Of a stretch of 64,000 nt of DNA, positions 13,130 to 54,916 are shown piece by piece; the stretch's first letter is position 1; every line of letters starts with the position of its first letter. This DNA is from an uncultured Gammaproteobacteria bacterium. Its GTDB lineage: Bacteria; Pseudomonadota; Gammaproteobacteria; Steroidobacterales; Steroidobacteraceae. The stretch lies in NCBI GenBank assembly GCA_963782865.1, contig CAWALS010000018.1, positions 37,011 through 101,010 on the forward strand, read 5' to 3'. A program made the position numbers and the translations under genes. The notes beneath the pieces were generated by a model. The model did no database searches and had not been told where the DNA came from. It saw nothing but the letters and a program-made list of their open reading frames with translations.

Positions 13130-13160
13130 GGCCTTGAGTGTTTAGGGTTGGTACGCCTCA

Positions 13161-35004: not shown

Positions 35005-36460
35005 ATCCGCAGATCCATTGCCGGACTGCCGTTCCGGCGTTATTTCCCAATCCGGCGGACCGAGAGCGGATCGAGCAACTGGCTGACGCTCGAGCTGCGG
35101 CGGCGCATTGCGGCGCATTCAGGCGCGGCCCGGTGACGCCGAGCATCGACATGCAGCAATTCGCGCGCCGAGCTGGAACGGCTTCGACTTCGAGCACGCC
35201 GCAGCCGCTCGAAGATGCATTGCGCTGGACCATCGAGCGCATGGAGCATGGCATCGTGCAAATGTCGAACCCGCGCTATTTCGGCCTGTTCAATCCGGGC
35301 GCCAACTTTCCCCGCGCAATGCGCCGATCGCATCGCGGGTCTGTTCAATCCGCAGCTCGCGAGTTCGGCGTCCTCGCCTGTGCCGGTGGCACTGGAAAGC
35401 CACGTGATCCGCGCGGTGGCGCGGCGCGCCGCATTCGGCGCGGATGCGACCGGGCATTTCGCGACCGGCGGATCGGAGGCGAACTACACGGCGCTGATCT
35501 GTGCGCGCTGACCGGCCGCCCATCCCGGCTATTCCGCGCGAGGGCGTGCGCGCCTTCGCCGGACCGGTCGAAGTTCTATACGTCACGGGAATGTCACATC
35601 GCGTGGCTGAAAATCGCGCATCAGGCCGGCGTCGGCCGCGGCGCGCTGCGGCTGGTCGATACCGACGGTCGGGGCCGGATGGATCCGCAGGCGCTGCTTC
35701 GGCGCCATTGCGGAGGACCGCGCCGCGGGCGCGGTTCCGGTGATGATCGTTGCCACGGCCGGAACCACCGGCGCGCGGCATGATCGACCCGTTGCACGCC
35801 TGCGCCGACATCGCCAAGCAGCAGGCGTCTGTGGTACCACGTCGATGCGGCCTGGGGCGGCGCGGCGCTGGCGTCGGATCGCCTGCGCGGCGCTGCTTGA
35901 CGGCATCGAGCGCGCCGACTCGATCACCATCGATGCCCACAAATGGTTCGCGACCACCATGGGATGCGCCATGTTCTTGTCACGCCGCGGCCGACCTGCT
36001 TGTCCGAAGCATTTCATGCCTCGACGAGCTTCATGCCGTCGAGCATTTCGGCGCTCGATCCCTACCTTGAACAGCGTGCAATGGTCGCGCCGTTTCATGG
36101 GGTTGCGCCTGTTCCTGGCGCTGGCGGCCGCCGGTTGGGAGGGCCTTGGCGCGCATGTCGAGCGCGGCGTCGAGGTGATCGAGCGCGTCAAGGAGCGGCT
36201 GGTTGCACTCGGCTGGCGCATCGCCAATGATTCACCGCTCGCGGTGCTGGACGCCGATTCCGCCGGCCGCAATGGGCGACGTGCGAGCCCTGGTGCGGCG
36301 GGTGGTGGCCTCCGGACGGGCCTGGGTGGCGCCGACCACCTTCGAAGGTCGCGAGGTGGTGCGGATCTGCGCGACCAACGGCGAAACCGCCATGGCCGAC
36401 GTGGACGCGCTGATCGCGGCGCTCAACGAGCGCCCCTTAAGCGCGTTTGAGCTCCTTTAA
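35001..36460 (+). pseudogene. PLP-dependent (group II-like) decarboxylase family protein, with many frameshifts
   Basis: Fragments in three frames: NPRYFGLFNPGANFP, AQCADRIAGLFNPQLASSASSP, HFATGGSEANYTALICA, MIVATAGTTG, SITIDAHKWF (PLP lysine) and a C-terminal RICATNGETAMADVDALIAALNE. At least about 10 frame changes. The start is approximate. Confidence 0.7.
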
Positions 36461-36707
36461 GCGCGCTGCGCCAAGGTGCGCTCCACCAGGCTCTCGATGG
36501 AGCGCAGCGAATGGAAATTCTCCGGTGTGATATCCGCCTTGCGCAATGGCGATGTCGAACTCCAGCTCGACGGCCAGCATGAGATTCACCATTTTCAACG
36601 AGCTGATGCCAAGATCGCTCAGTTGAGCGTCCAGCGGAAACGGGGCGGGCATACCGCGCTCTGGCCCCAAGAACGGCTTTAACCAGCGCGATCAGCCGCT
36701 CGCTCAC
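36457..36707 (-). pseudogene. acyl/aminoacyl carrier protein (about 80 aa), with two frameshifts
   Basis: SERLIALVKAVLG (frame 1), then PFPLDAQLSDLGISSLKMVNLMLAVELEFDIAI (frame 2, with the Ser in the carrier-protein DSL-like position), then KADITPENFHSLRSIESLVERTLAQRA* (frame 3). Confidence 0.65.
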
Positions 36708-36931
36708 CCCCTCATTGACGTCTGCGGATCCACTCGATGCGTCTCCTCAAAAAAAACAGGGCCGATAATACCGTGTAGCGCAGGATACGGAATACGATGC
36801 GGGTTTTACATATGTTTCGAAAACTGAGCCGAGCATCACTAAGTGACAAATATTTTCGCCGCGGCGTTATTGTCGAGTGCGGCCATCCCCGCATAATCCG
36901 CCGATTACAGGGCCGTAGGGCTGGTTTCAGA

Positions 36932-38144
36932 ATGGCAATCGAGACACACCGAATACCGGGTTCCCGCACTCCAAGCGCGCGGCAGAGCGACTTGACGGCG
37001 CGTGCCCGCGCAGCCGCCGACGTGGCCAGCGCCAACGCGGCCGCGGTCGACGCCGAGGCGCGCTTTCCCAGCGAGGCGTTCGCGGAACTGCGCAAGCAGC
37101 GGCTGCTCGGCATCCAGGTTCCGCAGCCTCTGGGCGGTGAAGGCGCCACGATCGCGCGAAATTGCCGACGTGTGCTACATCCTCGGCCAGTCCTGTTCCT
37201 CCACCGGCGCTGATTTACGCGATGCACCAGATCAAGATGGCGTGCATCGTGCGCCACTTCAAGAACAATGCCGCTCATGAGCGCATTCTGCGCCGCATCG
37301 TCGCCGAGCAATTGCTCCTGGCCTCATCGACCACCGAAGGCCAGGCTGGCGGCAACGTTCGTTCCAGCGAGGCAGCGGTCGAGCACGACGGCGAACAGGT
37401 CACCCTCGAACGCAAGGCGACGGTCATTTCCTATGCCGTGGAAGCGGACGGCATCGTCACCACCGCGCGCCGTGCCGCCGATGCCGCGGGCAACGATCAG
37501 GTACTGCTGGTGCTGTTGAAGTCCGACTATACCCTGGAGCGATTGCAGGTATGGGACACCCTGGGCATGCGCGGCACGCATAGCGAAGGCTTCACGCTGC
37601 GCGCGCGCGCCGCGGCCGCACAAATCCTGCCCGAACCCTACGAGCGAATTCACGCCCAGACCATGGTGCCGTTTCGCGCACATACTGTGGGGCTCGGTGT
37701 GGGCGGGAATCGCCGCCGCCGCGGCCTCCAAGGCGCAGGCTTTCGTGCGTCACGTGGTGCGGCAATCGAACGGCCAAACACCGCCCGGCGCCGCGCATTT
37801 CACCCAGGCGGTATCGACGTTGCGCACGCTGCGCGGCGTGCTCGCGGCCAGCCTGCGCAGCTATGAAGCGATCATGTCGGATGAGAAGGCGATCTCGTCC
37901 TTGGAATTTCAGGCGATGATTACCCTGACCAAGGTGCAGGTGTCGGAGCTCGCGGTGACCACGGTGCTCAGTTCGCTGCGCGCCTGCGGCTTATCCGGAT
38001 ATCGCAACGACACCGAATTCACCATCGGCCGCTTGCTGCGCGACGTGCTGTCCGCGCCGCATCATGATCAGCAACGACCGCATCTTGACCAATCTCGCAA
38101 CGACCTCATTGATGACGCCGCTGCCGAGCTCGATCAGCGGTTGA
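36932..38144 (+). pseudogene. acyl-CoA dehydrogenase family flavoprotein, with about 4 frameshifts
   Basis: FPSEAFAELRKQRLLGIQVP, EIADVCYILGQSCSSTG, ASSTTEGQAGG, WDTLGMRGTHSEGF and ACGLSGYRNDTEFTIGRLLRDVLSAP are distributed over three frames. The stop at 38142-38144 is 5 nt before the ligase ATG. Confidence 0.75.
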
Positions 38145-38149
38145 AGCCT

Positions 38150-39065
38150 ATGTCGCCCGATAGCGCCTCCGCAGTACCCGCTCGCGCATCTCGCCGATCA
38201 GCTGCTTCAGGCCCATGGGAGTCGACGGCGTTTATGCACGCACCGCGCTGTATGTGGATCTGGTTGAACGGCTCGAAAAGTACATCACCCGGCAGCGCGA
38301 CCCGCAGGCGGAAATCATGCGCTTCCCGCCGGTGATGAGCCGAACGCAGCTGGAGAAATCCGGGTATCTCAAAGAGCTTCCCCAATTTGCTGGGTTGCGT
38401 ATGCGCCCTGCACGGCTCTGAAAGCCTCGATCCGCTCGGCGGTGGAACGCTACGACAACGGCGGCGATTGGACCACCTCGCTGAGCTCCTCGGATCTGGT
38501 GCTGTCGCCCGCCGCTTGCTATCCCGTGTATCCGATCGCCGCGGCGCGCGGCCAGCTGCCGCGCGGCGGGCTGCAGTTCGATATCGAGGCCGATGTGTTC
38601 CGGCATGAGCCATCGCTCAGCCTCGATCGGCTGCAATCGTTCCGTATGCGTGAATTCGTGAGAATCGGCTCGCCGGACGAAATCGTCGAGTTTCGCGAAA
38701 AATGGATGGCCAAGGCGCCGGTACTGGCCGCCGAGCTGGGATTGCCGCACAGCATCGACGTGGCGAACGATCCATTCTTCGGTCGCGTGGGCCAAGTGAT
38801 GGCGGTCAGTCAGCGCCAGCAGGCCCTGAAGTTCGAATTGTTGATTCCCTACTATCCGAGCGCATCGCCCACCGCGTGCATGAGCTTCAACTATCACCGC
38901 GAGCACTTCGGCCAGGTGTGGGGCATCCGTGACGACAACGGCGAGTTGGCTCATACCAGCTGCGTCGCGTTCGGCATCGATCGCCTGGCGGTGGCGTTGT
39001 TCGCCAATCACGGCCTGGATCTCAAAACCTGGCCGGCGGCGGCTCGGCAGGCGCTGGCTCTGTAG
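38150..39065 (+). pseudogene. amino acid--[acyl-carrier-protein] ligase (truncated seryl-tRNA-synthetase homologue), with about 4 frameshifts in the first third
   Basis: About 305 aa when the frames are joined. GVDGVYARTALY...RFPPVMSRTQLEKSGYLK, LSPAACYPVYP, class II motif-2-like DVFRHEPS..RLQSFRMREFV, NDPFFGR, KFELLIP, and motif-3-like CVAFGIDRLAVALF. No N-terminal tRNA-binding coiled coil. Confidence 0.8.
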
Positions 39066-39099
39066 GCGCCTGTCAGGCTCCTAAGCATTCCGCGCGCGG

Positions 39100-40031
39100 A
39101 TGCCACTCGACCCACGCGTCAAGCGCTTTTTGGATCTCCTCGCCGCGGGCAATCCGCCCGATGCGCGCAGCGCCACGGTCGAGGAACGCCGCAAGGGCCT
39201 CGTCGTCCTTGATGGAATTCGCCGGGCCGCCCCGCGCACTCGAACGAGTGGAGGATCGGACGCTGCCGGGCGCCGGACGGCGCGCTGCGCGTCAGGCTCT
39301 ATTCGCCCTCGAAGGCCGAGATGCTTCCCGGGCTCATCTATTTTCACGGCGGCGGCTTGGTTGCGGGCACCCTGGAAACCCACGACGGCATCGGCCGCGC
39401 GCTCAGCCTCTGCGGCGGCGTGCGCGTGGTGTCGGTGGACTATCGCTTGGCTCCCGAGCACCGCTTTCCCGCAGCGCTTGAGGACGCGAAAGCGGCGCTA
39501 GGCCATATCAGCGGGCACGCCGCGGATTTCGGAATCGACCCGAAGCGCCTCGGCATTTGCGGAGATTCCGCCGGCGCCACATTGGCCGCGGCGACTTGCC
39601 GGTGGGCGACTCAAACCGGCGGTTCACAACTCATCCTGCAGCTACTGCTCTGTCCGATACTCGACTACAGCCGAGTAACGGCGTCGAAGCGCGAATTATC
39701 GAGCGGCTATCTGGTCGACCAGGCCACCCTCGACCACGACTTGATGTACTACCTGCCGCCGGGCACGGCGCCGTCCAATCCGTTGGTATCGCCGCTGCGG
39801 GCGACGGACCTGTCCGGTATGCCGCGGACGCTGATACATACCGCAGAATTTGATCCATTGCGCGATGAGGGACGAAATTATTTCGAGCGCCTGACCCAAG
39901 CCGGCAATGAAGTGTCCTACACTTGCCATCCAGGTATGATTCATCTTTTCTATGGTTTGGGAGCCGTCATACCCTATGCGCGCACGGCATTCGAGCAGAT
40001 TGGCGCCGAGATTCGCGCAGCGCTGGCCTAG
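39100..40031 (+). pseudogene. alpha/beta hydrolase (HSL/esterase-lipase family), with two frameshifts near the 5' end
   Basis: MPLDPRVKRFLDLL..., then shifts near 39210 and 39262, then an intact 236-aa tail with HGGG (oxyanion hole), GDSAGA (nucleophile elbow) and DPLRDEG...HPGMIH. Confidence 0.8.
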
Positions 40032-41122: not shown

Positions 41123-42655
41123 CTACAGCGCGGCGGCGCGCATCTGCGCCGCGGTTCGAGCGTCGCCGATGCGTTCGGCCGCTTCCGCCCCGCCTAGCAA
41201 CGAGCCGCGCCTGCCGGGAGCCAGCGCCAACGCGGCGCGGAATTCCCGCAACGCTTGCTGCGGTTGATTTTGCTGCAGCAGCAGTTCGCCGAGTTGCTCG
41301 CGCGCCGGAACGATGGGCCCCGGCGTCACCGGCAACTTTTCAACCGCGTCTTCTTCATCCGCCGCTTGCCGCAGCAATCGCGCCGATTCCGCGGCGCCCG
41401 CCGTGGCCGCCGCCAGCCGCCACGCTTTCGCTTCCTTCTCGAGGACGTCCACCTGGGTCGCCCAGTACGCATTTCCGGCAGCCCGCAGCTGTTCCTTGCA
41501 CGACTCAAGTTGCGCAATGTCGCTGTCCGCGGCCTGCGGCCGGCCGCTGCGCGCGTTGGCCATCGCACGCGCCCAGAACACGATGGCGCCGATATGGGGC
41601 GCCGCGCCCGGCAGCGTCTGCAGATCGGCGGCGGCGCGCCACATATGACGCTCAATTGCGAGTCGAACCGGCATGGCCGTAGCGGCATAGCCGGCCTTGA
41701 AATCGCCGTCCACTGCCGCCGCCGCATCCGTGGCGCGTAAATTCGCGACTACCTGCTCAGCGTCGCTATTCCGCCCCCGCTGCAGATAGGCATAGGTCAG
41801 ATAATCCATCGCGTGCAGCTCTTCACCTCGATCGCCCTGATCGTGTGCGGCCGCTCGCGCCAATCTGTTGGATGCGATGGAATCGTCCCAAAGGCCGAGT
41901 CTGGTAAATATGTGCGAGGGCATATGCAGGGCATGGGGCGCGGAAGGCGCGATCTTCGAATAGGCGCGCGCCGCCGCAAGACCGCGCGGCGCGAGCTCCG
42001 CGCTGTCGTAGGCGTGAATCAAGTAATGCGCCGCACCCGGATGATCGGGTTGAGAGCGGTAAATCGGCTCCAGCAGCGCCGCTGCGCGCTTTTGATTGGC
42101 GTGGTTGGGGTCCTCGGGCGGCGCGATCGCGATCAGCGACAAGGCATAGAAGGCTTGCGCTTCGGGGTCGTGTGGATTGCCGCTCGCAACCTCGCCCATG
42201 GCGTCGCTATAGGCTTTGGCGCGCAACGGCGGCGGCTCATCGATGTCTCGATAGTAGGCGGCGGCTGCCGCAATGAACTGCCGCTCGCGCGGCGTTCCGC
42301 GACTCATTGCGAGCGCCTGCGCCTGTTCGATTTCGAGTTGACCGTCGCGCAGTTCCGTCCGGCTCGGTGAACTCCAGAGCGGGTGATAGTGCGACATGGC
42401 GATGCCCCAATGGGCCATGGCGCAGCCGGGATCCAGCGCAGCGACTTTTCGGAATGATTGTTCCGAGGCCGCATAGGCAAAGGAATGCAGCAGCGCGACG
42501 GATCGCTCGAAATCGCGCGCGACGCTCGCTGAGCAGGATGTCGGGAACGAGACCTTTCCCAACTTCTCCGGCGGCGGATGGGAATGGGATTCCTGCGACA
42601 GGACCGGGAGCGTCCATACCAGGCAAATTCCGGCCCAAGCCGTTATTTTTGTCAC
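41123..42655 (-). CDS. exported TPR-repeat protein of unknown function (510 aa)
   Basis: Signal peptide MTKITAWAGICLVWTLPVLSQ. Repeated A/L/Y-rich helical hairpins run throughout. Confidence 0.6.
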   Translation of the reverse strand: MTKITAWAGICLVWTLPVLSQESHSHPPPEKLGKVSFPTSCSASVARDFERSVALLHSFAYAASEQSFRKVAALDPGCAMAHWGIAMSHYHPLWSSPSRTELRDGQLEIEQAQALAMSRGTPRERQFIAAAAAYYRDIDEPPPLRAKAYSDAMGEVASGNPHDPEAQAFYALSLIAIAPPEDPNHANQKRAAALLEPIYRSQPDHPGAAHYLIHAYDSAELAPRGLAAARAYSKIAPSAPHALHMPSHIFTRLGLWDDSIASNRLARAAAHDQGDRGEELHAMDYLTYAYLQRGRNSDAEQVVANLRATDAAAAVDGDFKAGYAATAMPVRLAIERHMWRAAADLQTLPGAAPHIGAIVFWARAMANARSGRPQAADSDIAQLESCKEQLRAAGNAYWATQVDVLEKEAKAWRLAAATAGAAESARLLRQAADEEDAVEKLPVTPGPIVPAREQLGELLLQQNQPQQALREFRAALALAPGRRGSLLGGAEAAERIGDARTAAQMRAAAL

Positions 42656-42713: not shown

Positions 42714-43409
42714 CTAGGCGTAGGTGGTCAGCGTTGGGTCAGGATGCGTGTCCAAATGCGGCAAGCCGTTGAAGCTGACCAGGTTATGCCGCCGCGGCGT
42801 CGCGGCGAACTCGGTGAGCGCGCTGTTGCGGATTCTCAGATTCAATTCGACGGCGGTCGCGGGCGGCGCGTTGAGCGCGGCTGCGACGATGGCCGCAATG
42901 GGGCCGCCGGAACTGACGATGAGCACATTGCCGTCGGGAAAACGCTGGCGCGCTTCAACCAGCGCCGCGACGGCACTGTCCTGAAATGCCTGCCAGGCAG
43001 GCATGCCCTCAGGCTGCGTGCGGGCCTCGGCCCACGCCAGCAAGGCTTCTCGCAGAACACGAAAGTGCTCGCGCACCACGAGCGGATCGCGCCGCGCCGC
43101 AGCCAATGCGGGCGCCGGGAAGGTTCCCGTCAGGGCCATCATGATGGCCTCGGGCTTGTACTCGTCGAGGCCGGGAAACGTTTCCTGCGGAGGCGAGGCG
43201 CCGAGCTCGACATGGCCATCGAAAATGCCCTGCGCCGTCTCGGTCTGACGCCGCAGCGTACCGGTGAATACCGCATCAAATCGAATCTGGCGCCGGCCGA
43301 AATAGCTGCCTAGAAGGCGTGCCTGCGTAAAACCCAAATCGGTGAGGCGGTCGTAATGATCGGTGCCAAAGGCCGCTTGCCCGTGGCGTACGAGATAAAT
43401 AGTTCCCAC
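42714..43409 (-). CDS. histidine phosphatase (phosphoglycerate mutase-like) family protein
   Basis: YLVRHGQAAFG (RHG motif) at the N-terminus, 231 aa. Confidence 0.85.
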   Translation of the reverse strand: MGTIYLVRHGQAAFGTDHYDRLTDLGFTQARLLGSYFGRRQIRFDAVFTGTLRRQTETAQGIFDGHVELGASPPQETFPGLDEYKPEAIMMALTGTFPAPALAAARRDPLVVREHFRVLREALLAWAEARTQPEGMPAWQAFQDSAVAALVEARQRFPDGNVLIVSSGGPIAAIVAAALNAPPATAVELNLRIRNSALTEFAATPRRHNLVSFNGLPHLDTHPDPTLTTYA

Positions 43410-43448: not shown

Positions 43449-44774
43449 TCAAGATACTGTAGCATCCGCGGTATTCCGACTCCACGGCAAATCCAAGGCG
43501 ACGATCAGACCTCCGCCCTGGCGATTGGCCAACTGAATGCGGCCGCCATGCGCTTCAGCGATTTCGCGCGCGAGCGCCAAGCCCAATCCGGTGCCGCTGC
43601 GCTTGGTGGAATAAAAGGGCAACAGCGCCTGTGCCAGGACCGTCTGGCTCATTCCGGATCCTCTGTCGCGCACCTCGATGCGTTGATCCGCACCGGCACA
43701 GACAATGGCGAGTTCCACCTGCGCCGCCGCGCCGCCCGCTTCGTGTGCGTTCTTCAGCATATTGATCAGCGCCTGTTCCACTTGCACGCGATCGAACCAA
43801 CCCGGCAGCTCAGGCAGCGGTTCGATGCAGGTAAAAGGCTGCTGGCGCCGAAGGTCCGCGACGAACTGTTGCCATGTTACCGATTCGGGTCGGGGCGCGG
43901 GCAATTTGGCAAACGCGGCATAGCCGCTGACGAATTGGTGCAGGTGCTCGGCGCGTTCCGCAATCGCCGAAAAGACGGTCGGCAGCGCCGCGTAATCTGC
44001 GCGCCGCGCAATTTCGGCGCCGGAATGTGCGAGCGAGGACAGGGGGCCCAAGGAATTGTTGAGCTCATGGCTGAGTACCCGGATCAGCTTCTTCCAGGTC
44101 GAAACTTCCTGGCGCGAGAGTTCGCGCGTCAGGCGCTTGAGCAAGTACAGCCTGAAGGTGCGCCCCTGCAGGATAAAGGCGCGCTGCGACAGATGAAATG
44201 TCTCTTCGACCCCATCGATTTCGGTGGAAAACAGATTGTCGCCCTGCTCTGCCGCCGCCGCTTGCAATGCCGCCGGAGCCTGCGCGAGGGCGTCGTGGAA
44301 TCGCAGGCCCTGCAGGCTGCGCCCGCCGCTCAACAGGTGCCGCGACGCGATGTTCGCGTAGGCGACGCGATCGTTCGCGTCGACCAACACCAACGCAACC
44401 GGCGAATTCTGCATGACGGTGTCAAGCAGCAATTCTCGCTGCACCAGATGCGCGCGCTGCTCGCGCAGGGCCGCCGCCAGTTCATTGTGCGCCGTCATCA
44501 GTTCGCCGAGCTCATCGTCGCGATCGGCGACCAGCGACAAGCTGAAATCGCCCTCGCGGTAGCTGGCCACCGTGCCCGACAGCGCGCGCAGCATCTGCTG
44601 GATCGGCCGCATGATGCGCGATGACAGCCACAGCAGCGGCAGCAGCGATGCCGCAACGATCAATAGCCAACTGAACAGAGGATTGCCGAACCAGCGTGCC
44701 GCCCAGGCACTGACCGCCGCGGTGAGCGCGACAATGACGATCAAAAGCAGCGCGAGCTTGGTCTTGAGGCTCAA
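43449..44774 (-). CDS. sensor histidine kinase (TM-HAMP-PAS-like-HisKA-HATPase), partner of the NtrC-type regulator
   Basis: Two TM segments, a HAMP-like region, the H-box LSHELNNSLGP, an N-box LKNAHEA and G-boxes DRGSGM / GTGLGLALA. Lies 9 nt downstream of the regulator gene. Confidence 0.85.
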   Translation of the reverse strand: MSLKTKLALLLIVIVALTAAVSAWAARWFGNPLFSWLLIVAASLLPLLWLSSRIMRPIQQMLRALSGTVASYREGDFSLSLVADRDDELGELMTAHNELAAALREQRAHLVQRELLLDTVMQNSPVALVLVDANDRVAYANIASRHLLSGGRSLQGLRFHDALAQAPAALQAAAAEQGDNLFSTEIDGVEETFHLSQRAFILQGRTFRLYLLKRLTRELSRQEVSTWKKLIRVLSHELNNSLGPLSSLAHSGAEIARRADYAALPTVFSAIAERAEHLHQFVSGYAAFAKLPAPRPESVTWQQFVADLRRQQPFTCIEPLPELPGWFDRVQVEQALINMLKNAHEAGGAAAQVELAIVCAGADQRIEVRDRGSGMSQTVLAQALLPFYSTKRSGTGLGLALAREIAEAHGGRIQLANRQGGGLIVALDLPWSRNTADATVS

Positions 44775-44783
44775 GGGCGAGGC

Positions 44784-46130
44784 TCAGGCGCCGCTAGGCG
44801 GGCGCAGATTGAACCGCTCCATTCGGCGGTATAAAGCCTGACGCGACAGCCCCAGATTCTGTGCCGCCCGGCTGATGTTGCCGCCGGCCTCCCTTAAACT
44901 CGCCTCCAAGACTTCCTTGCTCAAATTCTCGCTTTCCCGCGGCGGAGCGCGAGCCGCGGCGGGCAGATTCAAATCAGCGGCCGCCACGATGCGCTCGCGC
45001 GCCAGCAGCTTGGCGCGCTCGATGGAATTGCGCAGCTCGCGCACATTGCCGGGCCAATCGTGAGCCTGCAGTGCCGCCGCAGCATCTTCGCTCAATTGCA
45101 TTCCCTCGCCGAGAAAATGCCGCGCCAGCGGCAGGATATCCGCCGGCCGGTCCGCCAGCGGCGGGACGGCGATGTCAATCACATTCAGCCGGTAATACAG
45201 GTCTTCGCGAAAACGCCCTTCGCGGATCAGCGCCGGCAAATCCGCATTCGTCGCACTCAGGATGCGAACTTGCGCGGTGCGCGTCTTGCTCGAGCCCAGC
45301 ATCTCGAATTGACCGGTCTCGAGCACGCGCAGCAGTTTGACTTGTCCGGCGAGCGGCAAATCGCCGATCTCGTCCAGGAACAAGGTGCCGCCATTCGCCG
45401 CCTCGAAGCGCCCGGTGCGCGCGCGCGTGGCGCCGGTATAGGCTCCCGCCTCGGCGCCGAACAATTCGGCCTCGATCAACTCGGCGGGAATGGCGCCGCA
45501 GTTGACCGCGACAAAGGGACCGGCGCGCAGCGCGGAGTTGGCGTGCACGATCTGCGCAATGCGCTCCTTACCCGCGCCGTTCGGGCCGCTGATGAGCACG
45601 CGGACATCGGCGCGCGCCACGCGGCAGGCCAGTTCGACCACCCGCTCCATCGCATCCGAGGCGAACACAATATCGCAAAGATCGTATTGCTCCGCCAAGC
45701 GCTCGCGCCGACGGCGCTGTTCCTCCTGCAGGCGCAGCCGCTCGCGCGTCGTCTCGGCCAGCTCCAGCAGATTCTCCACCGTCGCCAACAGCTTGTCATT
45801 GTCCCAGGGCTTGCCGATGTAATCCGCCGCGCCCGCCTTGACGAGCTGCACCGCGGCCTCCAGATGGGTCCATGCCGTGAGCAGCACCACCGGCAGATCG
45901 GGCTGCACCGCGCGCAGCGCACGAAACAGTGCCGCGCCCTCTTCACCCGAGGTTGTATCGGCGCTGAAGTTCATGTCGGCGATCACGAGATCAACGCGCT
46001 CCTGCGCCAGCGCGGCGAGCCCTTTCTGCGGGGTGAGAGCGGTCAGCGTGCGGATGTCATGCAAGCCGAACAACAGGATGAGCGCCTGGGCGACCGCCGG
46101 ATTGTCATCAATAACGAGTACCGTACGCAT
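44784..46130 (-). CDS. sigma-54-dependent response regulator (NtrC/AtoC family: REC, AAA+, Fis-type HTH)
   Basis: REC (VLVIDDNP...DLVIADMNF), Walker [15 protein letters not shown] (a GAFTGA variant), WPGNVREL and a C-terminal [20 protein letters not shown]. Confidence 0.9.
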
Positions 46131-46176
46131 GCGGACATGTTAACGGGTGCGGCGCGGAATCACACCCTGACAGCGG

Positions 46177-47394
46177 TTAACCGCCGCGAGTCGCCAAGGC
46201 GGGGGGAATGGCAGCCGCGCGCAACGCCGGCCACAGCACGGCGAATTGGCCCAGCAGCAGAATGATGACGGCGCCGATGATGGCGCGGCTGTTGTCCATG
46301 CGTACCATTTCAAAACTGCGCACCATCCATAAGTTCAGGGCGATGGCGAAGGCGATGCCGACCGCGGCACCCGCCGCGGCGATCATGAAATTCTCGGTTT
46401 GAAAATAACGCACGATGGCCTGCCGCGTGGCGCCCAAGGCGCGCCGAATGCCGATTTGCCGGCGCCGCTGCGCCACCCAATAGCTCGTCAGACCAATGAT
46501 CCCGAACGCCGTCACGATGAGCAGCGCCGCGCAGATGCAGGTCAGCAGCACGATGAGGCCGTGATCGCCGCGATACGCATCGGCGCGTACCTGCAGCATC
46601 GACTTGCCGTGCAGAATACGATTCTCATCCAGCGCATACAGTTTGCTCTCGGCCGCCTTCATGACCGCATCGAGCTGTCCTGGCTGCACGCGGACCATGT
46701 AGTTGTTGGTCTCGCCGATCAGATGATAGGGGGCGAGCACCGAAAACTCTTCGTACGGGACAAACATACCGGTGGCCGCCGTCATCGGGCCCTGCAGCCG
46801 GTCGACGATGCCGATGATCGGTGCGGGTTTATCGCTGTCGAAGATGATCATCTTGCCGAGCGCGTTCTCGTTCGGAAAAACCTTCTCAGCCAACATTTTG
46901 GTGACAATGAGGCCGCTGTACGGCGGATCGCCCGGCGGCCTCTTGGTCTCGATTTCGGTCGCGGTATAGTTGCGGCCGGCGATGAGCTTGAGACCCATGG
47001 TATTCAAAGCGTGTTCATCGCCCATGTAGTTCGCCGTGACCGCGGTTGGCGTCTTTTGATCGGGGGTCAAGGTGACGGTGTCGATCCAGCCGCCGCCTTG
47101 CATGGGATACATATTCGTGGTGAAGGCGTCGACTACTCCCGGCAGCCCACGCAGCGCGGTGACATCCGCTGAGTCGCGCGCCGCGCTGTCGCTCTGATGA
47201 TCGACGCTCTCGGACGTGATGATGAAGATATTTTTTTCATCGAGACCCGATGGACGGCTGCTCCATGCCGTACGCTGCTCGACCAGCGTGATGGCATTGG
47301 CCAGAAACGCCAGCGTCACCGCCATTTGCGTGGCGATGAGCAACGCGCCGAATTTATTGCGGCGCATCGCCGACAGTATGGGACGCAATTCCAT
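46177..47394 (-). CDS. FtsX/MacB-type ABC transporter permease (type 2, distal copy), intact
   Basis: 405 aa: an N-terminal TM, a large periplasmic domain and a C-terminal FtsX 3-TM bundle (RRRQIGIRRALGATRQAIVRYFQTENF). Confidence 0.85.
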   Translation of the reverse strand: MELRPILSAMRRNKFGALLIATQMAVTLAFLANAITLVEQRTAWSSRPSGLDEKNIFIITSESVDHQSDSAARDSADVTALRGLPGVVDAFTTNMYPMQGGGWIDTVTLTPDQKTPTAVTANYMGDEHALNTMGLKLIAGRNYTATEIETKRPPGDPPYSGLIVTKMLAEKVFPNENALGKMIIFDSDKPAPIIGIVDRLQGPMTAATGMFVPYEEFSVLAPYHLIGETNNYMVRVQPGQLDAVMKAAESKLYALDENRILHGKSMLQVRADAYRGDHGLIVLLTCICAALLIVTAFGIIGLTSYWVAQRRRQIGIRRALGATRQAIVRYFQTENFMIAAAGAAVGIAFAIALNLWMVRSFEMVRMDNSRAIIGAVIILLLGQFAVLWPALRAAAIPPALATRGG

Positions 47395-47404
47395 TTCAGT
47401 TCTC

Positions 47405-48719
47405 CTACTGAGCCTTGAGCTGCCAGGCAGGCTGCACGTGCGCAGCCCGCCAGGTCGGATACAGTCCGGCCAGCAGCGTTGCGCCTACCGCGAGCAGCAC
47501 CGCGATGGCCGTGTCGGTCAAATCCAGGTGCGCAAGGGCGACGAAGTTTTTGGCCAGCAGCGAGCGCGCCGCCATCAGCCCCAGCGCCGTCAACCCGAGA
47601 CCCAATATTCCGCCGGCGAGCCCGACCACGCCGGTCTCGACCAGGCACTGCGCGAAGATCGCGGCGCGGCTGGCACCGAGCGCGCGGCGCACACCGATGT
47701 CCCCCACGCGGCCCATGATTTTCGCGAGCATCAGTCCCATGGCGTTCATCAGGCATACCAGCAAGAATCCGAACGACACCAAAATCAGGATGCGCACCTC
47801 GTTGGGAACGATGTGCCGGTAGCGCAGCCATTCGGTGACATTGCGCAATTGGGTGTGCGGCGGCCAATGAAATCGTCCCAATCGTTGCTGTTCCGCCGCG
47901 TAATTGTTCAAGTATGCCCGGTACCTCGCCGCATCCGCGGCGCGTCGGCAATTCGACCCAGAACTGTAGCCATACGCATTCGGATCGCAACAGCACGTCA
48001 TAGGCCGTCCCGCCCTCACCATTGCATTTGATGCTGCCCAAGACTTTCATTTGCTTGTCGATGGCGCGCGTGTAGGGCATGAAGATCTCATCGCTCCTGC
48101 CGAACGGCTGAACCTGCACATCGTAGAAGCGCGGCAGGAGCTGCCAGTCGTCCAGCACGCCGATCACGGTATAGGGTTCGCTGTCCAGACGCACCGTCTT
48201 GCCCACGCTGTTCTGGCCGCCGAATAGGCGATCGTTCATCGCGCTCGTCAACACCACCACCGCGGCGCGATTTGCATCATCCGCCGCGGACCAGGCGCGC
48301 CCATATTTGAAGGGAGCGTCGAACATCGGGAAGAAGTCGGTATAGGTGGTTCGCACGTTGGCTTTGAACGGCTTTTGCCGCGGATCGTCAGGGCGTACGG
48401 ACAGCAAGGTCGCGAACATGGCGGCTTGACGTTTTGCCGCGTGCGCCTGCATGAACGCCGAGACGTCGATGTAGCTCAGCAGGTCTGGGAGACCGTCGGG
48501 GGAATCCTGAGGAGGCCTCTCCGGCGACCAGTTATCGATCTGCGGCGTATAAAGCTCGCTCGACTTCTGCGGAATCGGATCCCCGGACATGGCGCGAAAT
48601 ACGGTCAGCGACGTCATGCACGCGCCGATGCCGACCGCAATCGCCGCGATCATCAGGCCCGTCAAGACCATATTGCGCCGCAGGCTGCGAATCCCCAGTC
48701 GAAAATAGTAGCGAAACAT
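47405..48719 (-). pseudogene. FtsX/MacB-type ABC transporter permease (type 1, distal copy), with a single frameshift near 47943
   Basis: The N-terminal 258 aa (MFRYYFRLGIRSLRRNMVL...WVELP) and the C-terminal part (AADAARYRAYLNNY...GDIGVRRALGASRAAIF...QLKAQ*) lie in frames offset by one base. Confidence 0.8.
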
Positions 48720-48737
48720 CTTAAGCGCGCCGTAAGC

Positions 48738-49975
48738 CTAGGCTGCGCGCGTTGCCAATGCCGGCGGAATGGACGCCGCCTTCAACGCCGGCCACAGCAC
48801 CGCCGCTTGCCCAGCAGCAGCACGACGACCGCGCCGACCAGATGCGTAGCCGGTATTCAGGCGCTCCATGGCAAAGGCACTCACCATCCAGAGATTCAGC
48901 GACACCGCCAAGGCCGACGCCCGATCGCAGCGCCCGCGCCGGCGATCAATAAATTCTCCGTCTGGAAGTAGTGGATGATGGCATTGCGCGTCGCACCCAG
49001 CGCGCGGCGGATGCCGATCTGGCGCCGGCGCTGCGCCACCCAATAGCTGGTGAGTCCGACGATTCCGAACGCGGTGACAGCCAACAGCGCCGCGCACACC
49101 ACCCCCAGGATCACCACCAGACCGCGGTCGTCCTTGTAGATCTCCCTGCGCAGAGCCGTCATGCGGCCGCGTCTTCCCGATGACCCGCGCACGGCTGATG
49201 TCGAAAAGCTTCTTCGGCGCCGCCTGGATCACCGCCGCAGCCTGGCCGGGCTGCGCGCGCACGACGTACAGAACCGGATACGGGACCACGAGGTGAAAGG
49301 GCACGATGAAAGAATTGTCGTTGAAGCTGCTGCCCCATCCGCCCGCCGATACCCACGGCACTTGCAATCGATCGATCACTGCCGACGATGGGCACTTGGC
49401 CTTTCGAAAAATCGTCGTAGATGCACTGACCCACCGCATTCGCGCTGGGAAACAGCTTGTCGGCCAGCCCCGCGTGATGATGACTGCCGCGGGCGGCGCC
49501 TGAAGTCGGTGTAGCCGACCTTTCCGTGACTTCGGCGGAGATTGAAATTGCGGCCGGCGATCAGCTTAAGTCCCAGGGCGTGCAGACGCATGTTCGTCGC
49601 CAAAGTACAAGGCGGCCGTGCCGAGGCGTTCTTCTGGTCCGGATTCAGACTGATGCCCTCGGTCGAGCCGCCGTCGCTCAAGGGATAGGAATTGGTCGCA
49701 AACGCATCCTCAACGCCCGGCAAGGAGCGCAGCGCCGCAAGATCGCCCTGCAGCCGGGCCGCCATGATCGGGCGGATTACCGACCCATTGATTGTCGATG
49801 ACGATGACATTGGCCTCGTCGTCATGCCGGTCGGCCGTTGGCTCAGGGCAACCCGCTGTTCGATGATGAACAAGCGCATTGCAGAGGATCGCCAGCGTGA
49901 TCGCCATTTGCACGGCAATCAGGATCGCGCCGACCTTGTTGCGGCGCATGGCTGAAAGGATGGGACGAATTCCAT
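48738..49975 (-). pseudogene. FtsX/MacB-type permease (type 2, proximal copy), with many frameshifts
   Basis: Paralogue of 46177..47394. The ATG at 49975 follows TAGGAGG. Recognisable pieces include MRRNKVGAILIAVQMAITLAIL, LRSLPGVEDAFATNSYPL, LGLKLIAGRNF and RRRQIGIRRALGATRNAIIHYFQTENL, spread over all three frames. Confidence 0.75.
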
Positions 49976-49985
49976 GGTATGCCTC

Positions 49986-51317
49986 CTACTGAGCCTTGAG
50001 TTGCCAGGCCGGTTGAACTTGTGCGGCGCGCCAGGTGGGATACAGCCCGGCCAGCGTGGTCGCCAACACCGCCAGGGTCACGGCGATGGCGATGTCCGCG
50101 GGACTGAAGTGCGTCAGGCGGGTCGACTTGCTCGGACAGCAGCGAGCGCAGGCCCATGAGTCCCAACGCCGTGAGCGCCAGCCCCAGCAGGCCGCCCGCC
50201 AGGCCGACCACGCCCGCCTCGATCAGGCACTGGCCGAAAATGGCGCCGCGACTGGCGCCGAGCGCGCGCCGCACGCCGATGTCGCCGGCGCGCCCCATGA
50301 TTTTCGCCAGCATCAAGCCCATGGCATTGAGCAGGCACACCAACAGAAAGCTGAACGACACCAGCACCAGAATTCGCACTTCGTCGGTGACGGCGTGCTG
50401 ATAGACCAGCCACTCGCGTACATCGCGTATCCGCGTGTGCGGCGGCCAGTGAAAGCGCCCGGAACGCTGCTGCTCCGCCGCGTAGTTGTTCAGGAAGGCG
50501 CGATAGCGCTCGCACGTCCGCCGCGGCTGGGCAACTCCGCCCAGAACTGGATCCAGATGCATTCGGAATGCAGGTGGCCTTCCCAGCCGGGCTGCCATGG
50601 CATCGCCGGCGCAATTGTTGTTGCCCCAACTCGCATTTGGCCGTCGATGGCGCGCGTGAAGGGAATAAAAAGCTGCTTCGCCCTCGCCGTATTGATCGTT
50701 GTTGAGATCGTAGAATTGCGGCGTCGGCTCCCAGCGGTCCAAGACGCCGACCACCCGGATATTCGTGACCGTCGAGATTGATGCGTCTTGCCGACGGAAT
50801 TGGCGCCGCCGAATACCTTGTCGTTGAGTTGTTGCGTAATCACGACGACATCGGCGTGATCGTCGTCGTCAGCCGCGTCCACGGGCCGCCCGCCAGAAAC
50901 GGCGTCATGGAACATCTTGAAGAAATCCGTATAGGTCGCGCGAATCTGCACTTGAAACGGCCGCAGGTCGGGATTCGCAGGGGTCAGGGCCGCACCCGTC
51001 TCGTACATCGCGGCTCTGCCGGTGGGCCGCGTGCGCGTTCATCAGCCCGACCGCGTCGATATAGCTGATCTGATCCTGAAAGCGCTCCTTATCGCCGGGT
51101 ACGATGCCTTTGGCTTCGGGACCCCAATTATCGATCTGCACGCGCGAACAGCTGACGCGGATTTCTGCGGGATGGGGTCGCTGTCCATGGCCCGAAAGAC
51201 GGTCAGCGTCGTCATGGAAGCGCCGATGCCGACGCCGATGGCGGCAATCATCAGCACGGTGAGCACGATGTTGCGCTTGAGGCTGCGCAGCGCGAGGCCG
51301 AGATAGTAGTTGAACAT
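49986..51317 (-). pseudogene. FtsX/MacB-type permease (type 1, proximal copy), with many frameshifts
   Basis: Paralogue of 47405..48719. [53 protein letters not shown], then fragments, then FHWPPHTRIRDVREW...GDIGVRRALGASRGAIF in other frames. The ATG at 51317 follows AAGGAGG. Confidence 0.75.
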
Positions 51318-51327
51318 GGTGGCCTCC

Positions 51328-52035
51328 TTAAGGGTTGGCGTTCGCGGTGGCGACCAAGCGGCGGCTGGGCCGCCAGATCGACCACCTGGCCGTCGACGAT
51401 ATGCACCTCGCGCTGCGCGCGCACCGCAAGTTCCGGATCATGCGTCACCATCACGATGGTCGCGCCGTCGCGATGCAGCTCCTCGAGCAGATCCATGACG
51501 CCGCGCGCCATCTGCGTATCGAGATTGCCGGTCGGTTCATCCGCCAGCAGCAGCCGCGGCGAGCCCGCCAGCGCGCGCGCGATGGCGACGCGCTGCTGCT
51601 GGCCGCCCGACAGTTCCGCCGGGTAGTGCCGCGCGCGCGCCGACAGGCCGACGCGCCCAGCGACTCCTGGATGCGGCGGCGTCTTTCGGCGGCGTTGAAG
51701 CCGCGATAGCGCAGCGGCACATCGATGTTGTCCTGCACGTTCAGGTCGGCGATCAGATTGAAGGCCTGAAAGATGAAGCCGATCTTCTCATTGCGCAGCC
51801 GCGAGCGCTGGTTGTCGTTCAGGCCGCGCACATTGGCGCCATCCAGCTGGTACTCGCCGCCGCTGAACTCCTCGAGCAGCCCCGCGATGGTCAGGAAAGT
51901 GGTCTTGCCCGAGCCCGAGGCCCGGTGACCGCGACGAACTCGCCCTCGCGCACGTGGATCGAGAAGTCCCGCAGCGCGTAAGGTCTCGACGACTTCGGTG
52001 CGATAGGCTTTGGAGAGGTGGGTCATTTTCAGCAT
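51328..52035 (-). pseudogene. ABC transporter ATP-binding protein (MacB/LolD-type), with about 5 frameshifts
   Basis: MLKMTHLSKAYRTEVVET..., SGSGKTTFL (Walker A), [11 protein letters not shown], then in another frame [15 protein letters not shown] / [12 protein letters not shown] / VMVTHD. The start overlaps the HlyD stop (ATGCTGA). Confidence 0.8.
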
Positions 52036-53371
52036 GGTGTGGTCTCACGGGCTGGTTGTTCAATGCAGTGACTGAGGATGACGCGCTGCGCGCCGTTGAA
52101 AGCATCGGTGCCGGAGATGACGACCTGATCGCCGACGGCCAGGCCGTCGAGGATCTCCGACCTTGGCGATGCTGGCGGCGCCCAAGCGCACCGGCCGTGC
52201 GCTCGGCGATGTTGCCGTGAACCACGTAGGCGAAACCGCCGCCTTCCTGATCCACGAAGGAGCCGCGATCGACCATCAGCACGTTGTCGCGCCGGTCGAT
52301 GAAAATGCGCACCGACAGGCGCTGGCTTTGGCGCAGGCCTGCCGGCTTCTCCGCGCCGAAGCGCAGCCGGGCCGTAACTTGACCGGCGACGACTTCGGGC
52401 GACACGCCGCTGACCACGCCCTGCCAGTGATGGCCGCCGCCTTCCAAGTCGGCGGTCATGCCGGGACGCAGATCGCGCGCCAGACTCTCGGTAACCTTGA
52501 TCTCGACTTCGAGCGCCGACAGATCGACAACCGTCAGCAACGGCGCGTCCTTGGCGACGCTGGCGCGATCGGCGACTTGCACCTGGCCCACTTGGCCGTC
52601 GACCGGCGACTTGACATTCAAGCCGTCAACCTGACGCTGCAGATCGCTCACCATGAATTGCTGCCGATCGAACAGCGCCTTCTTGCTGTCGACATCGAAG
52701 CGATTTTGCTTCGGCTGCTCATCGTAGTTGCTTTTCGCTTGCTGGAGGGCGAACTGCGCTTTCTCCAAAGCGTCCTCCGCCCTGAGCGCCTGCAACTCCG
52801 AATAGGAGCCCTGTTCGTAAGCCTTGCGGCTTCGGTCGCGTTCGCGCTGCGCCGTCTTTTGATCGACCTCGGCTTGATTATAGGCGTCGCGCAGCTGCGA
52901 AAGCGTATGCTCCGCGTTGAGGATCGCCCGCTGCCAATCGAGGCGCAGACTCGCCAGGGTGGCCTCTTCCTGCGAGAGCTTCGCGGTCAAGTCCGGGCTG
53001 TCGACAACCGCGAGCACCTGACCTTTGGTGACCGTGTCGCCGGCGTGGACCTTGAGCGTGACGGTCCCCAGGGCGTTGGCGTAGAGAGTCGGGCTGACCG
53101 CGGCCACCACTTGGCCGTCGGCGGAAATGTCGCGGATGAAATTGCCGCGCTCCACCGTCGCAATCGACACCCGCGAGCGGTCAACGGAAACTCCGGCGCC
53201 GGAATAGTGCGTCAGGAGCACGAGCAACGCAATGATCAGGACGCCTGCGATCGCGCCGGCCACAATCAGCTTGCGGTGACGCTTGAGGGGATTTTTCGGT
53301 TCGATCACGCGATCCTGCGCGGATGTATCGCGAAGCATGATGGGTTCCTTGGGGAGCAATCGCATGCTCAC
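52029..53371 (-). pseudogene. HlyD/MacA-family periplasmic adaptor, with two frameshifts near the 3' end (about 52155 and 52190)
   Basis: TM anchor LIVAGAIAGVLIIALLVLL, a lipoyl/barrel domain, a long coiled coil and a beta-barrel. The tail RLGAASIAKV / EILDGLAVGDQVVISG... is in shifted frames. An alternative start at M12 (53338) follows AAGGAA. Confidence 0.8.
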
Positions 53372-54726
53372 GCGGCTTTCTCGATGAGAAGGTTGTCGAT
53401 GGCAACAAGATCCTGCTCGGTCAATCGACCGGCTTGTTGCTTGAGGGTGAGCACATTGGTCAGGTAATCGTAGCGCGCCTGGGCGAAAGCGCGCCGCGCC
53501 GCGTAGTAGTTGTTCTGCGCATTCAACAGTTCGAATTCGGTGCCGGTACCGAATTCGACATTGCGCCGCATGGCCTCGACCGCGCGCTCGCCGGAGTCCA
53601 CCGCGCGGCGCGCCGCGCCGATGCGCTGAATCCCGGTCACGATGCCGCGAAAGGCGGCGCGAGTCTGCGTCTCGGTATTGCGTTTGGAGGCTTCATAATT
53701 GGCTTCGGCTTGGCGAAACAGGGCGCGGGATTGGCGCACCGCCGATGCGATGGCGCCGCCGGAGAACAGCGGCCAGCTGAACGACACGCCGATGGTGTCC
53801 AGCGTTTGATTGCCGCCGAGCACCTCATCCTGCGTAATCTTGGATCCGGAGCCGGTCAGCGAGATTGTCGGCAAGCCGCGTCCGCGCTGCACCGAGATAT
53901 CCCGCGAGGCCGCTTCCATGGAGAGCTGCGCGGTGCGCACGTCGAAGTTCTCCAGCCGTGCGGAGGCCACCCATTCATCCGCGGTGGCCGGGTCCGGCGA
54001 GAGCAAAGGAATGTCCTCGCGCAGGGGAGCGACGCCGTCGACGTGTTGGCCGACGATCTGGGTCAGCGCAAGATTTGCATCATCCAGCGCATTGCGCGCG
54101 TCGATGACGGGTTGTTCCGTCGCATCGTAATAAGCTTGTGCCTGGTCCACGTCGCTGCGCGGGCCGACGCCGGTCTGCTCACGCGACTTGGCTTGGTTGA
54201 GCAGCGTGCTGAAGGCTTTGCGCTCGGCAACGTTGGTGGCAAGCTGATCAGCGGCAGAGAGGATGCCGAAGTAGGCTTGCGCCACCCGCAGCAATAAACT
54301 CTGCTGAGCACCTTGGAAATTGGCCTCCGCCGCGGCGACCTGGAAATTCGCTTCCTTGAGCTGGCTGAATGACTGGAAACTCCACAGCGTTTGCGACAGG
54401 TTAAGGCCCAAGGTGTGTGCCGTGCCGTAACAGTGTTGCGTGCTCGCGGTGGAGCTGATCGCGCAATCGGCAGCCTGGCTGCCGAGCGCCGGCCCGCTAT
54501 CGAATCCGGCCTTTTCCCGCGCGGCGGATGCGTTCGCAGCGACCTGCGGCAACCACTGCGCGATCGCCTGGGGACGTGCTTCAACCAACGCGTCGCGCTG
54601 GAAATGCGCGGCTTGCAGCGTGGTGTCCCGGGTCAGCGCAAGTTCGTAGAACTGCTTCAAATCATTGGCGGCCGCGACCCGGGCCGACAAGGCCAAGATG
54701 CCCAACAGGAATGCACCTCGATACAT
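53368..54726 (-). CDS. tolC: TolC-family outer membrane efflux protein
   Basis: 452 aa with signal peptide MYRGAFLLGILALSARVAAA and two repeats of the OEP domain. The stop overlaps the adaptor start. Intact. Confidence 0.9.
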   Translation of the reverse strand: MYRGAFLLGILALSARVAAANDLKQFYELALTRDTTLQAAHFQRDALVEARPQAIAQWLPQVAANASAAREKAGFDSGPALGSQAADCAISSTASTQHCYGTAHTLGLNLSQTLWSFQSFSQLKEANFQVAAAEANFQGAQQSLLLRVAQAYFGILSAADQLATNVAERKAFSTLLNQAKSREQTGVGPRSDVDQAQAYYDATEQPVIDARNALDDANLALTQIVGQHVDGVAPLREDIPLLSPDPATADEWVASARLENFDVRTAQLSMEAASRDISVQRGRGLPTISLTGSGSKITQDEVLGGNQTLDTIGVSFSWPLFSGGAIASAVRQSRALFRQAEANYEASKRNTETQTRAAFRGIVTGIQRIGAARRAVDSGERAVEAMRRNVEFGTGTEFELLNAQNNYYAARRAFAQARYDYLTNVLTLKQQAGRLTEQDLVAIDNLLIEKAA

Positions 54727-54738
54727 GCCCTAAGGCAA

Positions 54739-54754
54739 AGCAAGGCGCATGCCA
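54739..54754 (-). promoter_or_regulatory. sigma-54 (-24/-12) promoter TGGCAT-N5-TTGCT immediately upstream of tolC
   Basis: The minus strand reads TGGCATGCGCCTTGCT, with correct GG-N10-GC spacing. The predicted start site falls only about 2 nt before the tolC ATG. Confidence 0.5.
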
Positions 54755-54817
54755 GCGCTATAGCCAGCGCAAGCTATTGTTTATAGGAGTTTTATTTTTT
54801 TATTCATTGCGTACGGT

Positions 54818-54840
54818 GTCCGCGGACAGTGTCCGCGGAC
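54818..54840. promoter_or_regulatory. two tandem copies of the 10-bp palindrome GTCCGCGGAC (candidate enhancer/UAS for the NtrC-type regulator)
   Basis: Copies at 54818-54827 and 54831-54840, separated by 3 bp. They lie ~65-100 bp upstream of the -24/-12 element, and an AT-rich tract (54775-54810) containing an IHF-like AACAATAGCTTG lies in between. Confidence 0.4.
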
Positions 54841-54916
54841 GGCGCCGGACAGTGCGCCGGCCGCGGGGAGCCTGCGTACAACGCGGCTCACGTTGAATAG
54901 TCAGAAGGCTGCTAGG

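Follow-up and report, generated by a model that had tools for sequence, protein, structure and literature searches.

Members of the MacB family of ABC transporters occur as homodimers (MacB, FtsX), as heterodimers (LolCE) or as fused double permeases (YbbP, BceB); a tripartite pump with heterodimer pairs in repeated copies is not among the forms listed in a review of the family (PMC5985334). Research on MacB-type pumps has dealt almost exclusively with fused homodimers. In Vibrio cholerae, VarACDEF (VC1563 and VC1565-VC1568) comprises a separate ATPase (VarF), an adaptor (VarA), an outer-membrane channel of its own (VarC) and, as permeases, two different MacB-like proteins, VarD and VarE, each with four transmembrane (TM) helices and a large periplasmic domain (PMC5595328). 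Sigma-54 control of an operon for an adaptor and an ABC efflux transporter has been described for MXAN7147 of Myxococcus xanthus (PMC9765219). Here we analyse a nine-gene array on the minus strand at positions 43449-54840 of a 64,000-nucleotide stretch of contig CAWALS010000018.1, from an uncultured member of the Steroidobacteraceae (the whole stretch is referred to as the window), which belongs to a widespread soil-bacterial family of pumps built differently from the fused homodimers. The locus is probably a single operon under enhancer-dependent control that encodes a tripartite export pump of the type VII (MacB-type) ABC class together with its own regulatory circuit, and its frameshifts are most likely artefacts. 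The initial annotation, made from the window alone, had proposed sigma-54 control of a locus that combines a separate ATPase and two types of permease with its own NtrC-type two-component system, and this reading is supported by the comparative evidence presented below. Searches of the literature on duplicated orphan permeases, on FtsX/MacB together with sigma-54 and on Steroidobacter efflux did not find a study of the present architecture.

Open reading frames were called from stop to stop and domains assigned with Pfam and NCBIfam, which together identify all nine genes in the order previously claimed: TolC, a MacA-like adaptor, an ABC ATPase, four permeases that we term A1-B1-A2-B2, a REC-AAA+-HTH activator and a HAMP/PAS kinase, all on the minus strand. 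The array is also as tightly packed as had been stated, with a 4-nt overlap between tolC and the adaptor gene, whose GTG start overlaps the tolC stop, and remaining gaps of about 10-46 nt. The TolC-family outer membrane duct (53368..54726; 452 aa) is intact, has an N-terminal signal peptide and two OEP domains (PF02321), scores 277.5 bits on the NCBIfam model TIGR01844 (cut-off 225.15) and is 85% identical to its orthologue in the related locus L003. The MacA/YknX-like periplasmic adaptor of the membrane fusion protein type (52065..53371; HlyD_3 and HlyD_D23 domains) has one N-terminal TM helix at residues 35-53; an intact orthologue scores above the RND_mfp cut-off (113 bits vs 94.9), and matches to MacA and DarC are partial only. 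The stand-alone ABC ATPase, or nucleotide-binding domain (NBD), at 51326..52035 (about 236 aa; ABC_tran) finds its best partial matches in DarD, FtsE, LolD and the MacB NBD, all under the equivalog cut-offs; its orthologues are 97-100% identical.

The four permeases follow as A1 (49986..51317; about 440 aa), B1 (48738..49976; about 409 aa), A2 (47405..48719; about 437 aa) and B2 (46177..47394; 405 aa, intact). MacB_PCD and FtsX domains are found in A1 and B1, each with four TM helices, in B2, and in A2, where MacB_PCD lies in the N-terminal piece of the reading frame and FtsX in the C-terminal one. In line with type VII ABC transporters, these are 4-TM permeases whose TM1 and TM2 are separated by a large periplasmic domain, and they are accompanied by an adaptor and a TolC-family duct.

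Control region and two-component genes

A -24/-12 promoter with upstream palindromes had been proposed in front of tolC, and comparison of 49 distinct upstream regions, in which the two elements keep a fixed spacing, supports it. Read along the minus strand, the control region consists of a conserved additional half-site TGTCCG (54846-54851), the palindromes cGTCCGCGGACA and TGTCCGCGGACA, an A/T tract containing AAACAATAGCTTG, the promoter and the tolC ATG at 54726. The predicted sigma-54 promoter, TGGCAT-N5-TTGCT (54739..54754, minus strand), has one mismatch to TGGCAC-N5-TTGCW; since a single match per 64 kb is at chance level, its significance comes from conservation and not from the match itself. 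The two tandem 12-bp palindromes, which are the predicted upstream activator sites (54817..54841, minus strand), have centres 13 bp apart and lie about 85 bp upstream of the -24 element. The distance between TGGCAY-N5-TTGC and GTCCGCGGAC is constant in about 50 of the 53 related loci with upstream DNA, and both form nearly invariant blocks in the otherwise variable alignment of the 49 regions, which gives the promoter consensus cTGGCAcG-N3-CTTGCT. An IHF-like site (54770..54782, minus strand) lies in the A/T-rich tract between enhancer and promoter; its core, AAacAa-N4-TTa, is conserved in the same alignment, and likeness to the consensus WATCAANNNNTTR points to putative IHF binding. This layout of promoter, enhancer and IHF-like site is kept down to 49% TolC identity, regardless of the upstream neighbour gene. 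An exact sigma-54 consensus, TGGCAC-N5-TTGCA, also stands elsewhere in the window, at 30263-30278 on the plus strand.

A distance of about 13 nt between the -12 GC and the tolC ATG, which the window shares with its closest relatives, predicts a near-leaderless tolC mRNA with no room for a Shine-Dalgarno sequence; in other relatives it is 18-33 nt longer. A stop codon stands in frame before the ATG. A scan of 41-55.1 kb for sigma-70 promoters and terminators returned chance-level matches only, and the lack of above-chance internal signals fits one transcript that ends with the regulator genes, and hence positive autoregulation. Co-transcription from tolC to the kinase gene is a prediction, as is dependence on sigma-54 in vivo; among public RNA runs, none was found to contain the stretch.

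The array had been claimed to encode its own NtrC-type two-component system, and the domain content of the activator and the kinase beside it agree with this. The predicted sigma-54 activator (44784..46130; 448 aa, intact) comprises Response_reg, Sigma54_activat (222 bits in Pfam) and HTH_8 domains, and reached no equivalog cut-off when scanned against NCBIfam. It retains a Walker A motif (GPNGAGKE), a receiver aspartate in the context IADMNF and a GAYTGA loop, which among 52 orthologues reads GAYTGA in 40 and GAFTGA in 11. The histidine kinase gene (43449..44774; 441 aa) adjoins that of the regulator in 50 of 52 loci, following it there as it does here. The kinase has TM helices at residues 7-25 and 33-55, and the loop of about eight residues that links them leaves it essentially without a periplasmic sensor; TM2 is followed by a HAMP domain and a region with weak likeness to PAS, and then by DHp and HATPase_c.

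Permease pairs across genomes and the proposed pump

To place the array in a wider context, we scored eight contexts of B2 homologues and 71 genome loci by tblastn with ten proteins of L003. Close homologues of the intact B2 number in the thousands in soil metagenomes, and one of them is labelled Steroidobacteraceae. About 50 genomes share the gene order TolC-adaptor-ATPase-(A-B)n-regulator-kinase, and the carriers belong to Steroidobacteraceae, Nevskia, Pseudolysobacter, Dyella and Ahniellaceae. Adaptor and TolC genes lie in the same array in about 45 loci, and the regulator gene follows the last B gene in 49 of the 58 loci with enough DNA. Among 49 arrays that are complete from ATPase to regulator (n = 1 to 3), 26 read ABAB, 18 AB and two ABABAB; the three irregular ones, all from assemblies with a broken gene, resemble ABAB with one broken gene. 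Longer arrays, of up to six pairs within a 21-kb locus, occur in other Steroidobacteraceae and in gammaproteobacterial metagenome-assembled genomes, and a multi-pair version is available in a cultured isolate, Dyella tabacisoli, which has at least four complete pairs and a fifth A gene at the edge of the locus. When 122 A-type proteins are placed in a tree, A1 and A2 fall into two distinct clades, both of them old, which indicates that their duplication is ancient and maintained and no peculiarity of this strain; for pairs of the long arrays, the tree shows orthologues in other genomes.

Carriers of the operon also possess orphan pairs of A2-B2 type without an adjacent ATPase, adaptor or TolC (L072, L074, L076 and L079); L074 lies on the same contig as a full operon, L021, and L072 consists of two convergent pairs. 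No sigma-54 promoter with enhancer was found at any of these four.

The claim of two distinct permease types is well supported by sequence identities. As measured in an intact relative, A1 and A2 are 63% identical and B1 and B2 56%, as against about 22% between A and B. By BLAST, the resemblance between A and B is recognisable in the membrane part only; a profile comparison aligns them over their full length (22% identity, probability 99%). The paralogues differ most outside the membrane, with identities in periplasmic versus TM parts of 55% versus 78% for A1/A2 and 47% versus 68% for B1/B2, and they therefore probably handle different substrates. In the periplasmic domain, two cysteines (C232 and C248 in the numbering of L007:3067-4377) are invariant in 70 of 70 aligned A-type proteins, which suggests a conserved disulfide; an equivalent invariant pair was not seen in the B-type proteins.

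Several lines of evidence point to A and B working as a pair. The two types alternate in 46 of the 49 complete arrays, and each aligns to its own half of the 803-position model of the ADOP family, A to positions 5-401 and B to 410-801, at 161-178 bits (178 for B2). Furthermore, a library-wide phmmer search with B2 yielded 569 clusters at E <= 1e-30, mostly of about 405 aa, together with several of 830-870 aa in which B forms the C-terminal half. In two of these fusions, P0133 (868 aa) and P0134 (831 aa), the N-terminal halves are 45-49% identical to A1 over its full length and the C-terminal halves 40-41% identical to B2. Further A-then-B fusions were recorded as P0141, P0186, P0223, P0228 and P0257, and the fusions as a whole are 36-49% identical to the split proteins; by sequence, such fusions bridge the split pairs and the ADOP family. 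Natural gene fusions are a classic argument for physical pairing. From gene order, ADOP half-mapping and fusions we infer an A-B heterodimer, and the single ATPase gene in each array implies an ATPase homodimer beneath this heterodimeric membrane unit, as in LolD2-LolCE.

AlphaFold2 models of B2 (pLDDT 87, pTM 0.76) and of the A2 orthologue in L007 (pLDDT 84.8) both have four TM helices, with a periplasmic domain of mixed alpha/beta structure. The best match of both in a fold search was Acinetobacter MacB (5gko; E of about 5e-18; TM-score 0.65 for B2 and 0.67 for A2), followed by further MacB entries and Spr0695, and then by LolE/LolC, YtrF, HrtB, YbbP and BceB; a PDB sequence search gave much the same family ranking, with MacB first. 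When scanned against NCBIfam, the permeases reached no equivalog cut-off for MacB, LolC/E or DarB, and DevC did not appear. This common fold, together with the fact that MacB and FtsX are homodimers (PMC5985334), would be compatible with A and B each homodimerising like MacB, so that four separate permeases would compete for one ATPase. We nevertheless regard that arrangement as very improbable: A and B alternate and are duplicated as a unit, with exceptions that look like broken ABAB arrays; the orphan copies are A-B pairs as well; A always falls on the N-terminal and B on the C-terminal half of the ADOP model; and natural fusions keep the A-then-B order.

Assuming an A-B heterodimer, we propose a pump with a common chassis, formed by a TolC trimer, the MacA-like adaptor and two copies of the single ATPase as a homodimer, on which the membrane part would be either A1-B1 or A2-B2. 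As in MacB, substrate would enter from the periplasm or from the inner membrane's outer leaflet, and mechanotransmission would expel it through TolC. For its control, the kinase would phosphorylate the NtrC-type regulator, which would bind at the tandem palindromes TGTCCGCGGACA, some 100 bp ahead of the start site, and a bend at the IHF-like site would help it to activate the sigma-54 promoter before tolC. Since the operon closes with the genes for regulator and kinase themselves, such a circuit would amplify itself. Stoichiometry, autoregulation and transport direction are predictions here, and the locus would serve the inducible export of a specific substrate. Palindrome, IHF-like site, promoter and short-loop kinase can all be read from the sequence and offer a handle for finding inducers and substrates.

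We tentatively consider a further step, which takes in the one to six pairs per operon and the orphan pairs elsewhere in the genome. The A-B pairs could be interchangeable, substrate-specific heads on one chassis, with the kinase reading their transport in the membrane, like BceS with BceAB, and driving sigma-54 self-induction. If this possibility were true, it would amount to modularity on the exporter side and would give a working context to the large 'orphan' ADOP family.

The pump might instead be dedicated to an endogenous peptide, lipid, glycolipid or lipoprotein, as an exporter or envelope-remodelling device and not for detoxifying efflux, with parallels in DevBCA, PvdRT-OpmQ, the darobactin exporter DarBCD and LolCDE. 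The best NCBIfam matches of the ATPase and adaptor, DarD and DarC, both sub-threshold, lean in this direction, and the MacB family exports endogenous products besides drugs (PMC5985334). We find this rather doubtful, since no biosynthetic, precursor or cargo gene accompanies the operon across taxa and the flanks vary by clade, the Lol equivalog scores are far under cut-off, and the varying counts of diversified pairs fit a range of external substrates better. The gaps in long arrays likewise hold no cargo: a check of flanks and gaps for conserved genes of cargo or accessory type turned up nothing beyond toxin-antitoxin-like genes and one A-type fragment. These gaps (L055:6017-7433; L065:3528-4573 and 9710-10642; L067:3734-4726; L069:5746-6685, 9258-10001 and 12557-14433) contain, as judged by eye from translations, a GNAT-type toxin with a DUF1778-like antitoxin, a nucleotidyltransferase/HEPN-like pair, a PIN-like gene and an AAA-ATPase-like gene; in L055, a toxin-antitoxin-like insertion truncates an A-type gene.

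Downstream of the array lie two further genes on the minus strand. One, of the histidine-phosphatase superfamily (42714..43409; His_Phos_1 in relatives), starts 40 nt 3' of the kinase gene and is found 3-40 nt 3' of it across a Steroidobacteraceae subclade. Many loci with a single A-B pair do not have it, and it is an accessory of that subclade, outside the operon core. Its product matches the phosphohistidine phosphatase SixA weakly (32 bits vs a cut-off of 74.5) and, as a predicted histidine phosphatase, could modulate the phosphorelay. The other encodes a 510-aa protein (41123-42655) with downstream orthologues in relatives that are 72-76% identical; the NCBIfam scan gave no match for it, and no Pfam match is recorded for the orthologues.

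Frame breaks in the centre of the array

Five of the nine genes, those for the adaptor, the ATPase, A1, B1 and A2, are not open as written in the window. Comparison with nine Illumina-assembled relatives identified 34 window-only frameshifting indels within genes: two in the adaptor gene, both near its 3' end, three in the ATPase gene, 13 in A1, 15 in B1 and one in A2, near 47943. All of these fall within 47.9-52.2 kb, and TolC, B2, regulator and kinase have none. Insertions outnumber deletions by 26 to 10 when two intergenic indels are included, and the indels lie outside homopolymer runs. None of the nine relatives carries them; in the short-read contigs L003-L007 the genes are full length, and the intact lengths in relatives are, in array order, 439/434/236/440/409/437/405/448/~440 aa.

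The underlying coding sequence seems well preserved. Placed in the frame of L007, the closest clean relative, A1 and B1 show amino-acid identities of 86.5% and 82.7%, similar to the 87.2% and 89.6% of their neighbours A2 and B2, and substitutions in A1 and B1 peak at the third codon position (about 0.30-0.36, versus 0.07-0.14 at the first two). A second dense patch of frameshifts, flanked by intact genes, was seen at 36460-39270 in unrelated genes (a carrier protein, an acyl-CoA dehydrogenase-like protein, a 303-aa protein and an esterase), and as it has the same signature as the patch at 47.9-52.2 kb, the assembly appears to contain local stretches of low accuracy. In addition, four shallow Illumina runs from soil or sediment yielded contigs identical to intact parts of the window (for example, 545 nt with 0 differences). 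Of 31 contigs that are at least 99% identical on 46000-53500, all except one fall outside 48760-51400, and several of the bases inserted only in the window are missing from contigs aligned within the 48.8-52.2 kb patch. The runs with contigs were found by querying the intact part; a query with the patch matched weakly, at 5-6% of words. Taking together the retained codon-position bias, the second patch, the intact relatives and the Illumina contigs that avoid the patch, it is most likely that the 34 frameshifts reflect patchy assembly error rather than gene decay.

Were the frame breaks real, the 3' end of the adaptor gene, the ATPase gene, A1, B1 and A2 would be true pseudogenes in a strain that is losing the pump, the duplication having made one pair redundant. 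Such decay could account for the confinement of the indels to 47.9-52.2 kb while TolC, B2, regulator and kinase stay intact, and for the fact that the Illumina soil and sediment runs gave no contig identical to the window inside the patch. We nonetheless judge it highly unlikely. Loss of the sole ATPase and adaptor would disable both pairs, so that redundancy offers no explanation, and neither the third-position bias nor the normal amino-acid identity would be expected after time enough for 34 indels to accumulate. The 26:10 excess of insertions outside homopolymers resembles the noise of long reads, frameshifts are just as dense in the unrelated genes at 36.4-39.3 kb, the contigs of at least 99% identity sit on the flanks and avoid the patch, and both the nine Illumina-assembled relatives, which are free of the indels, and the full-length genes of L003-L007 argue in the same sense. 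Broken frames in such a copy should not be taken for gene decay.

With assembly error as the preferred explanation of the frameshifts, the reading of the locus as one operon for a tripartite export pump has several points to contend with. The implied transcription start lies just 1-3 nt before the tolC ATG, and a near-leaderless mRNA of this kind is unusual. The pairing of A with B is deduced from gene order and fusions, and the HAMP and PAS-like regions mean that the kinase may sense something other than the pump. Finally, the contigs aligned inside the patch carry 4-10% substitutions relative to the window and may thus come from related strains, which makes the contig evidence strong and not decisive.

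Comparison with known systems

The permeases, adaptor and duct resemble those of MacAB-TolC from E. coli, A. baumannii and A. actinomycetemcomitans (5nik, 5gko and 5lil) in permease fold, in the MacA-like adaptor and in the TolC-family channel, and mechanotransmission is presumed to be shared. MacB, however, is a homodimer with a fused ATPase, whereas the present locus has a separate ATPase and a probable A-B heterodimer, includes tolC within the operon and is predicted to be under sigma-54 control; on the MacB equivalog NF007826 the permeases score only 36-54 bits against a cut-off of 966.

The best HMM match is instead ADOP (TIGR03434), with the split halves scoring 161-178 bits against a whole-protein cut-off of 622. 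An ADOP carries two MacB_PCD + FtsX units on one chain of about 800 aa; here these units are distributed over separate genes for 405-440 aa. ADOPs are called 'orphan' because no ATPase lies adjacent; unlike them, the present locus has an ATPase, an adaptor, a duct and a regulator. Gene order, half-mapping and fusions link the split pairs to this family, and this suggests how orphan permeases might get their motor.

A resemblance to LolCDE had also been proposed, and it holds for subunit organisation, with one ATPase and two FtsX-type permeases, but not for HMM score and fold, which are nearer to ADOP and MacB. A Lol-like reading was rejected on these grounds: the lolCE, LolC and LolE models (TIGR02212, NF008076, NF008357 and TIGR02213) gave 19-41 bits against cut-offs of 362-540, and MacB outranks them in fold. 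LolCDE moreover has no adaptor or outer-membrane duct and passes lipoproteins to LolA, whereas adaptor and TolC genes head the operon described here.

With respect to regulation, MacABCsm/MacRS of Stenotrophomonas maltophilia, as summarised in a review, is a MacAB pump with its own duct and adjacent two-component genes (PMC10295115). By that description it is a MacAB-type pump from a related gammaproteobacterial order; its two-component genes are divergent, and the review describes neither split or paired permeases nor sigma-54 control. The BceAB-BceRS systems of Firmicutes likewise combine a type VII ABC transporter with a kinase that has a very short loop between its TM helices. They differ in that BceB is a single chain of 10 TM helices, the regulator is of OmpR type, the kinase has no HAMP or PAS region, and adaptor and duct are missing. 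By analogy, the kinase might sense through the transporter as in Bce, which we offer as an idea only.

The closest counterpart of the pump is VarACDEF, and the initial annotation's statement that no characterised system of this kind could be named does not hold in this respect (PMC5595328). Judged from its published description, VarACDEF is likewise a tripartite pump encoded in one cluster, with a split ATPase and two permeases. It differs in its control by the divergent LysR-type VarR, in its link to a metallo-beta-lactamase and in having a single permease pair, and it has neither a sigma-54 promoter nor a two-component pair. A split ATPase serving two permeases is therefore already known from VarACDEF; what is new in the present locus is the iteration of permease pairs together with sigma-54 two-component control.

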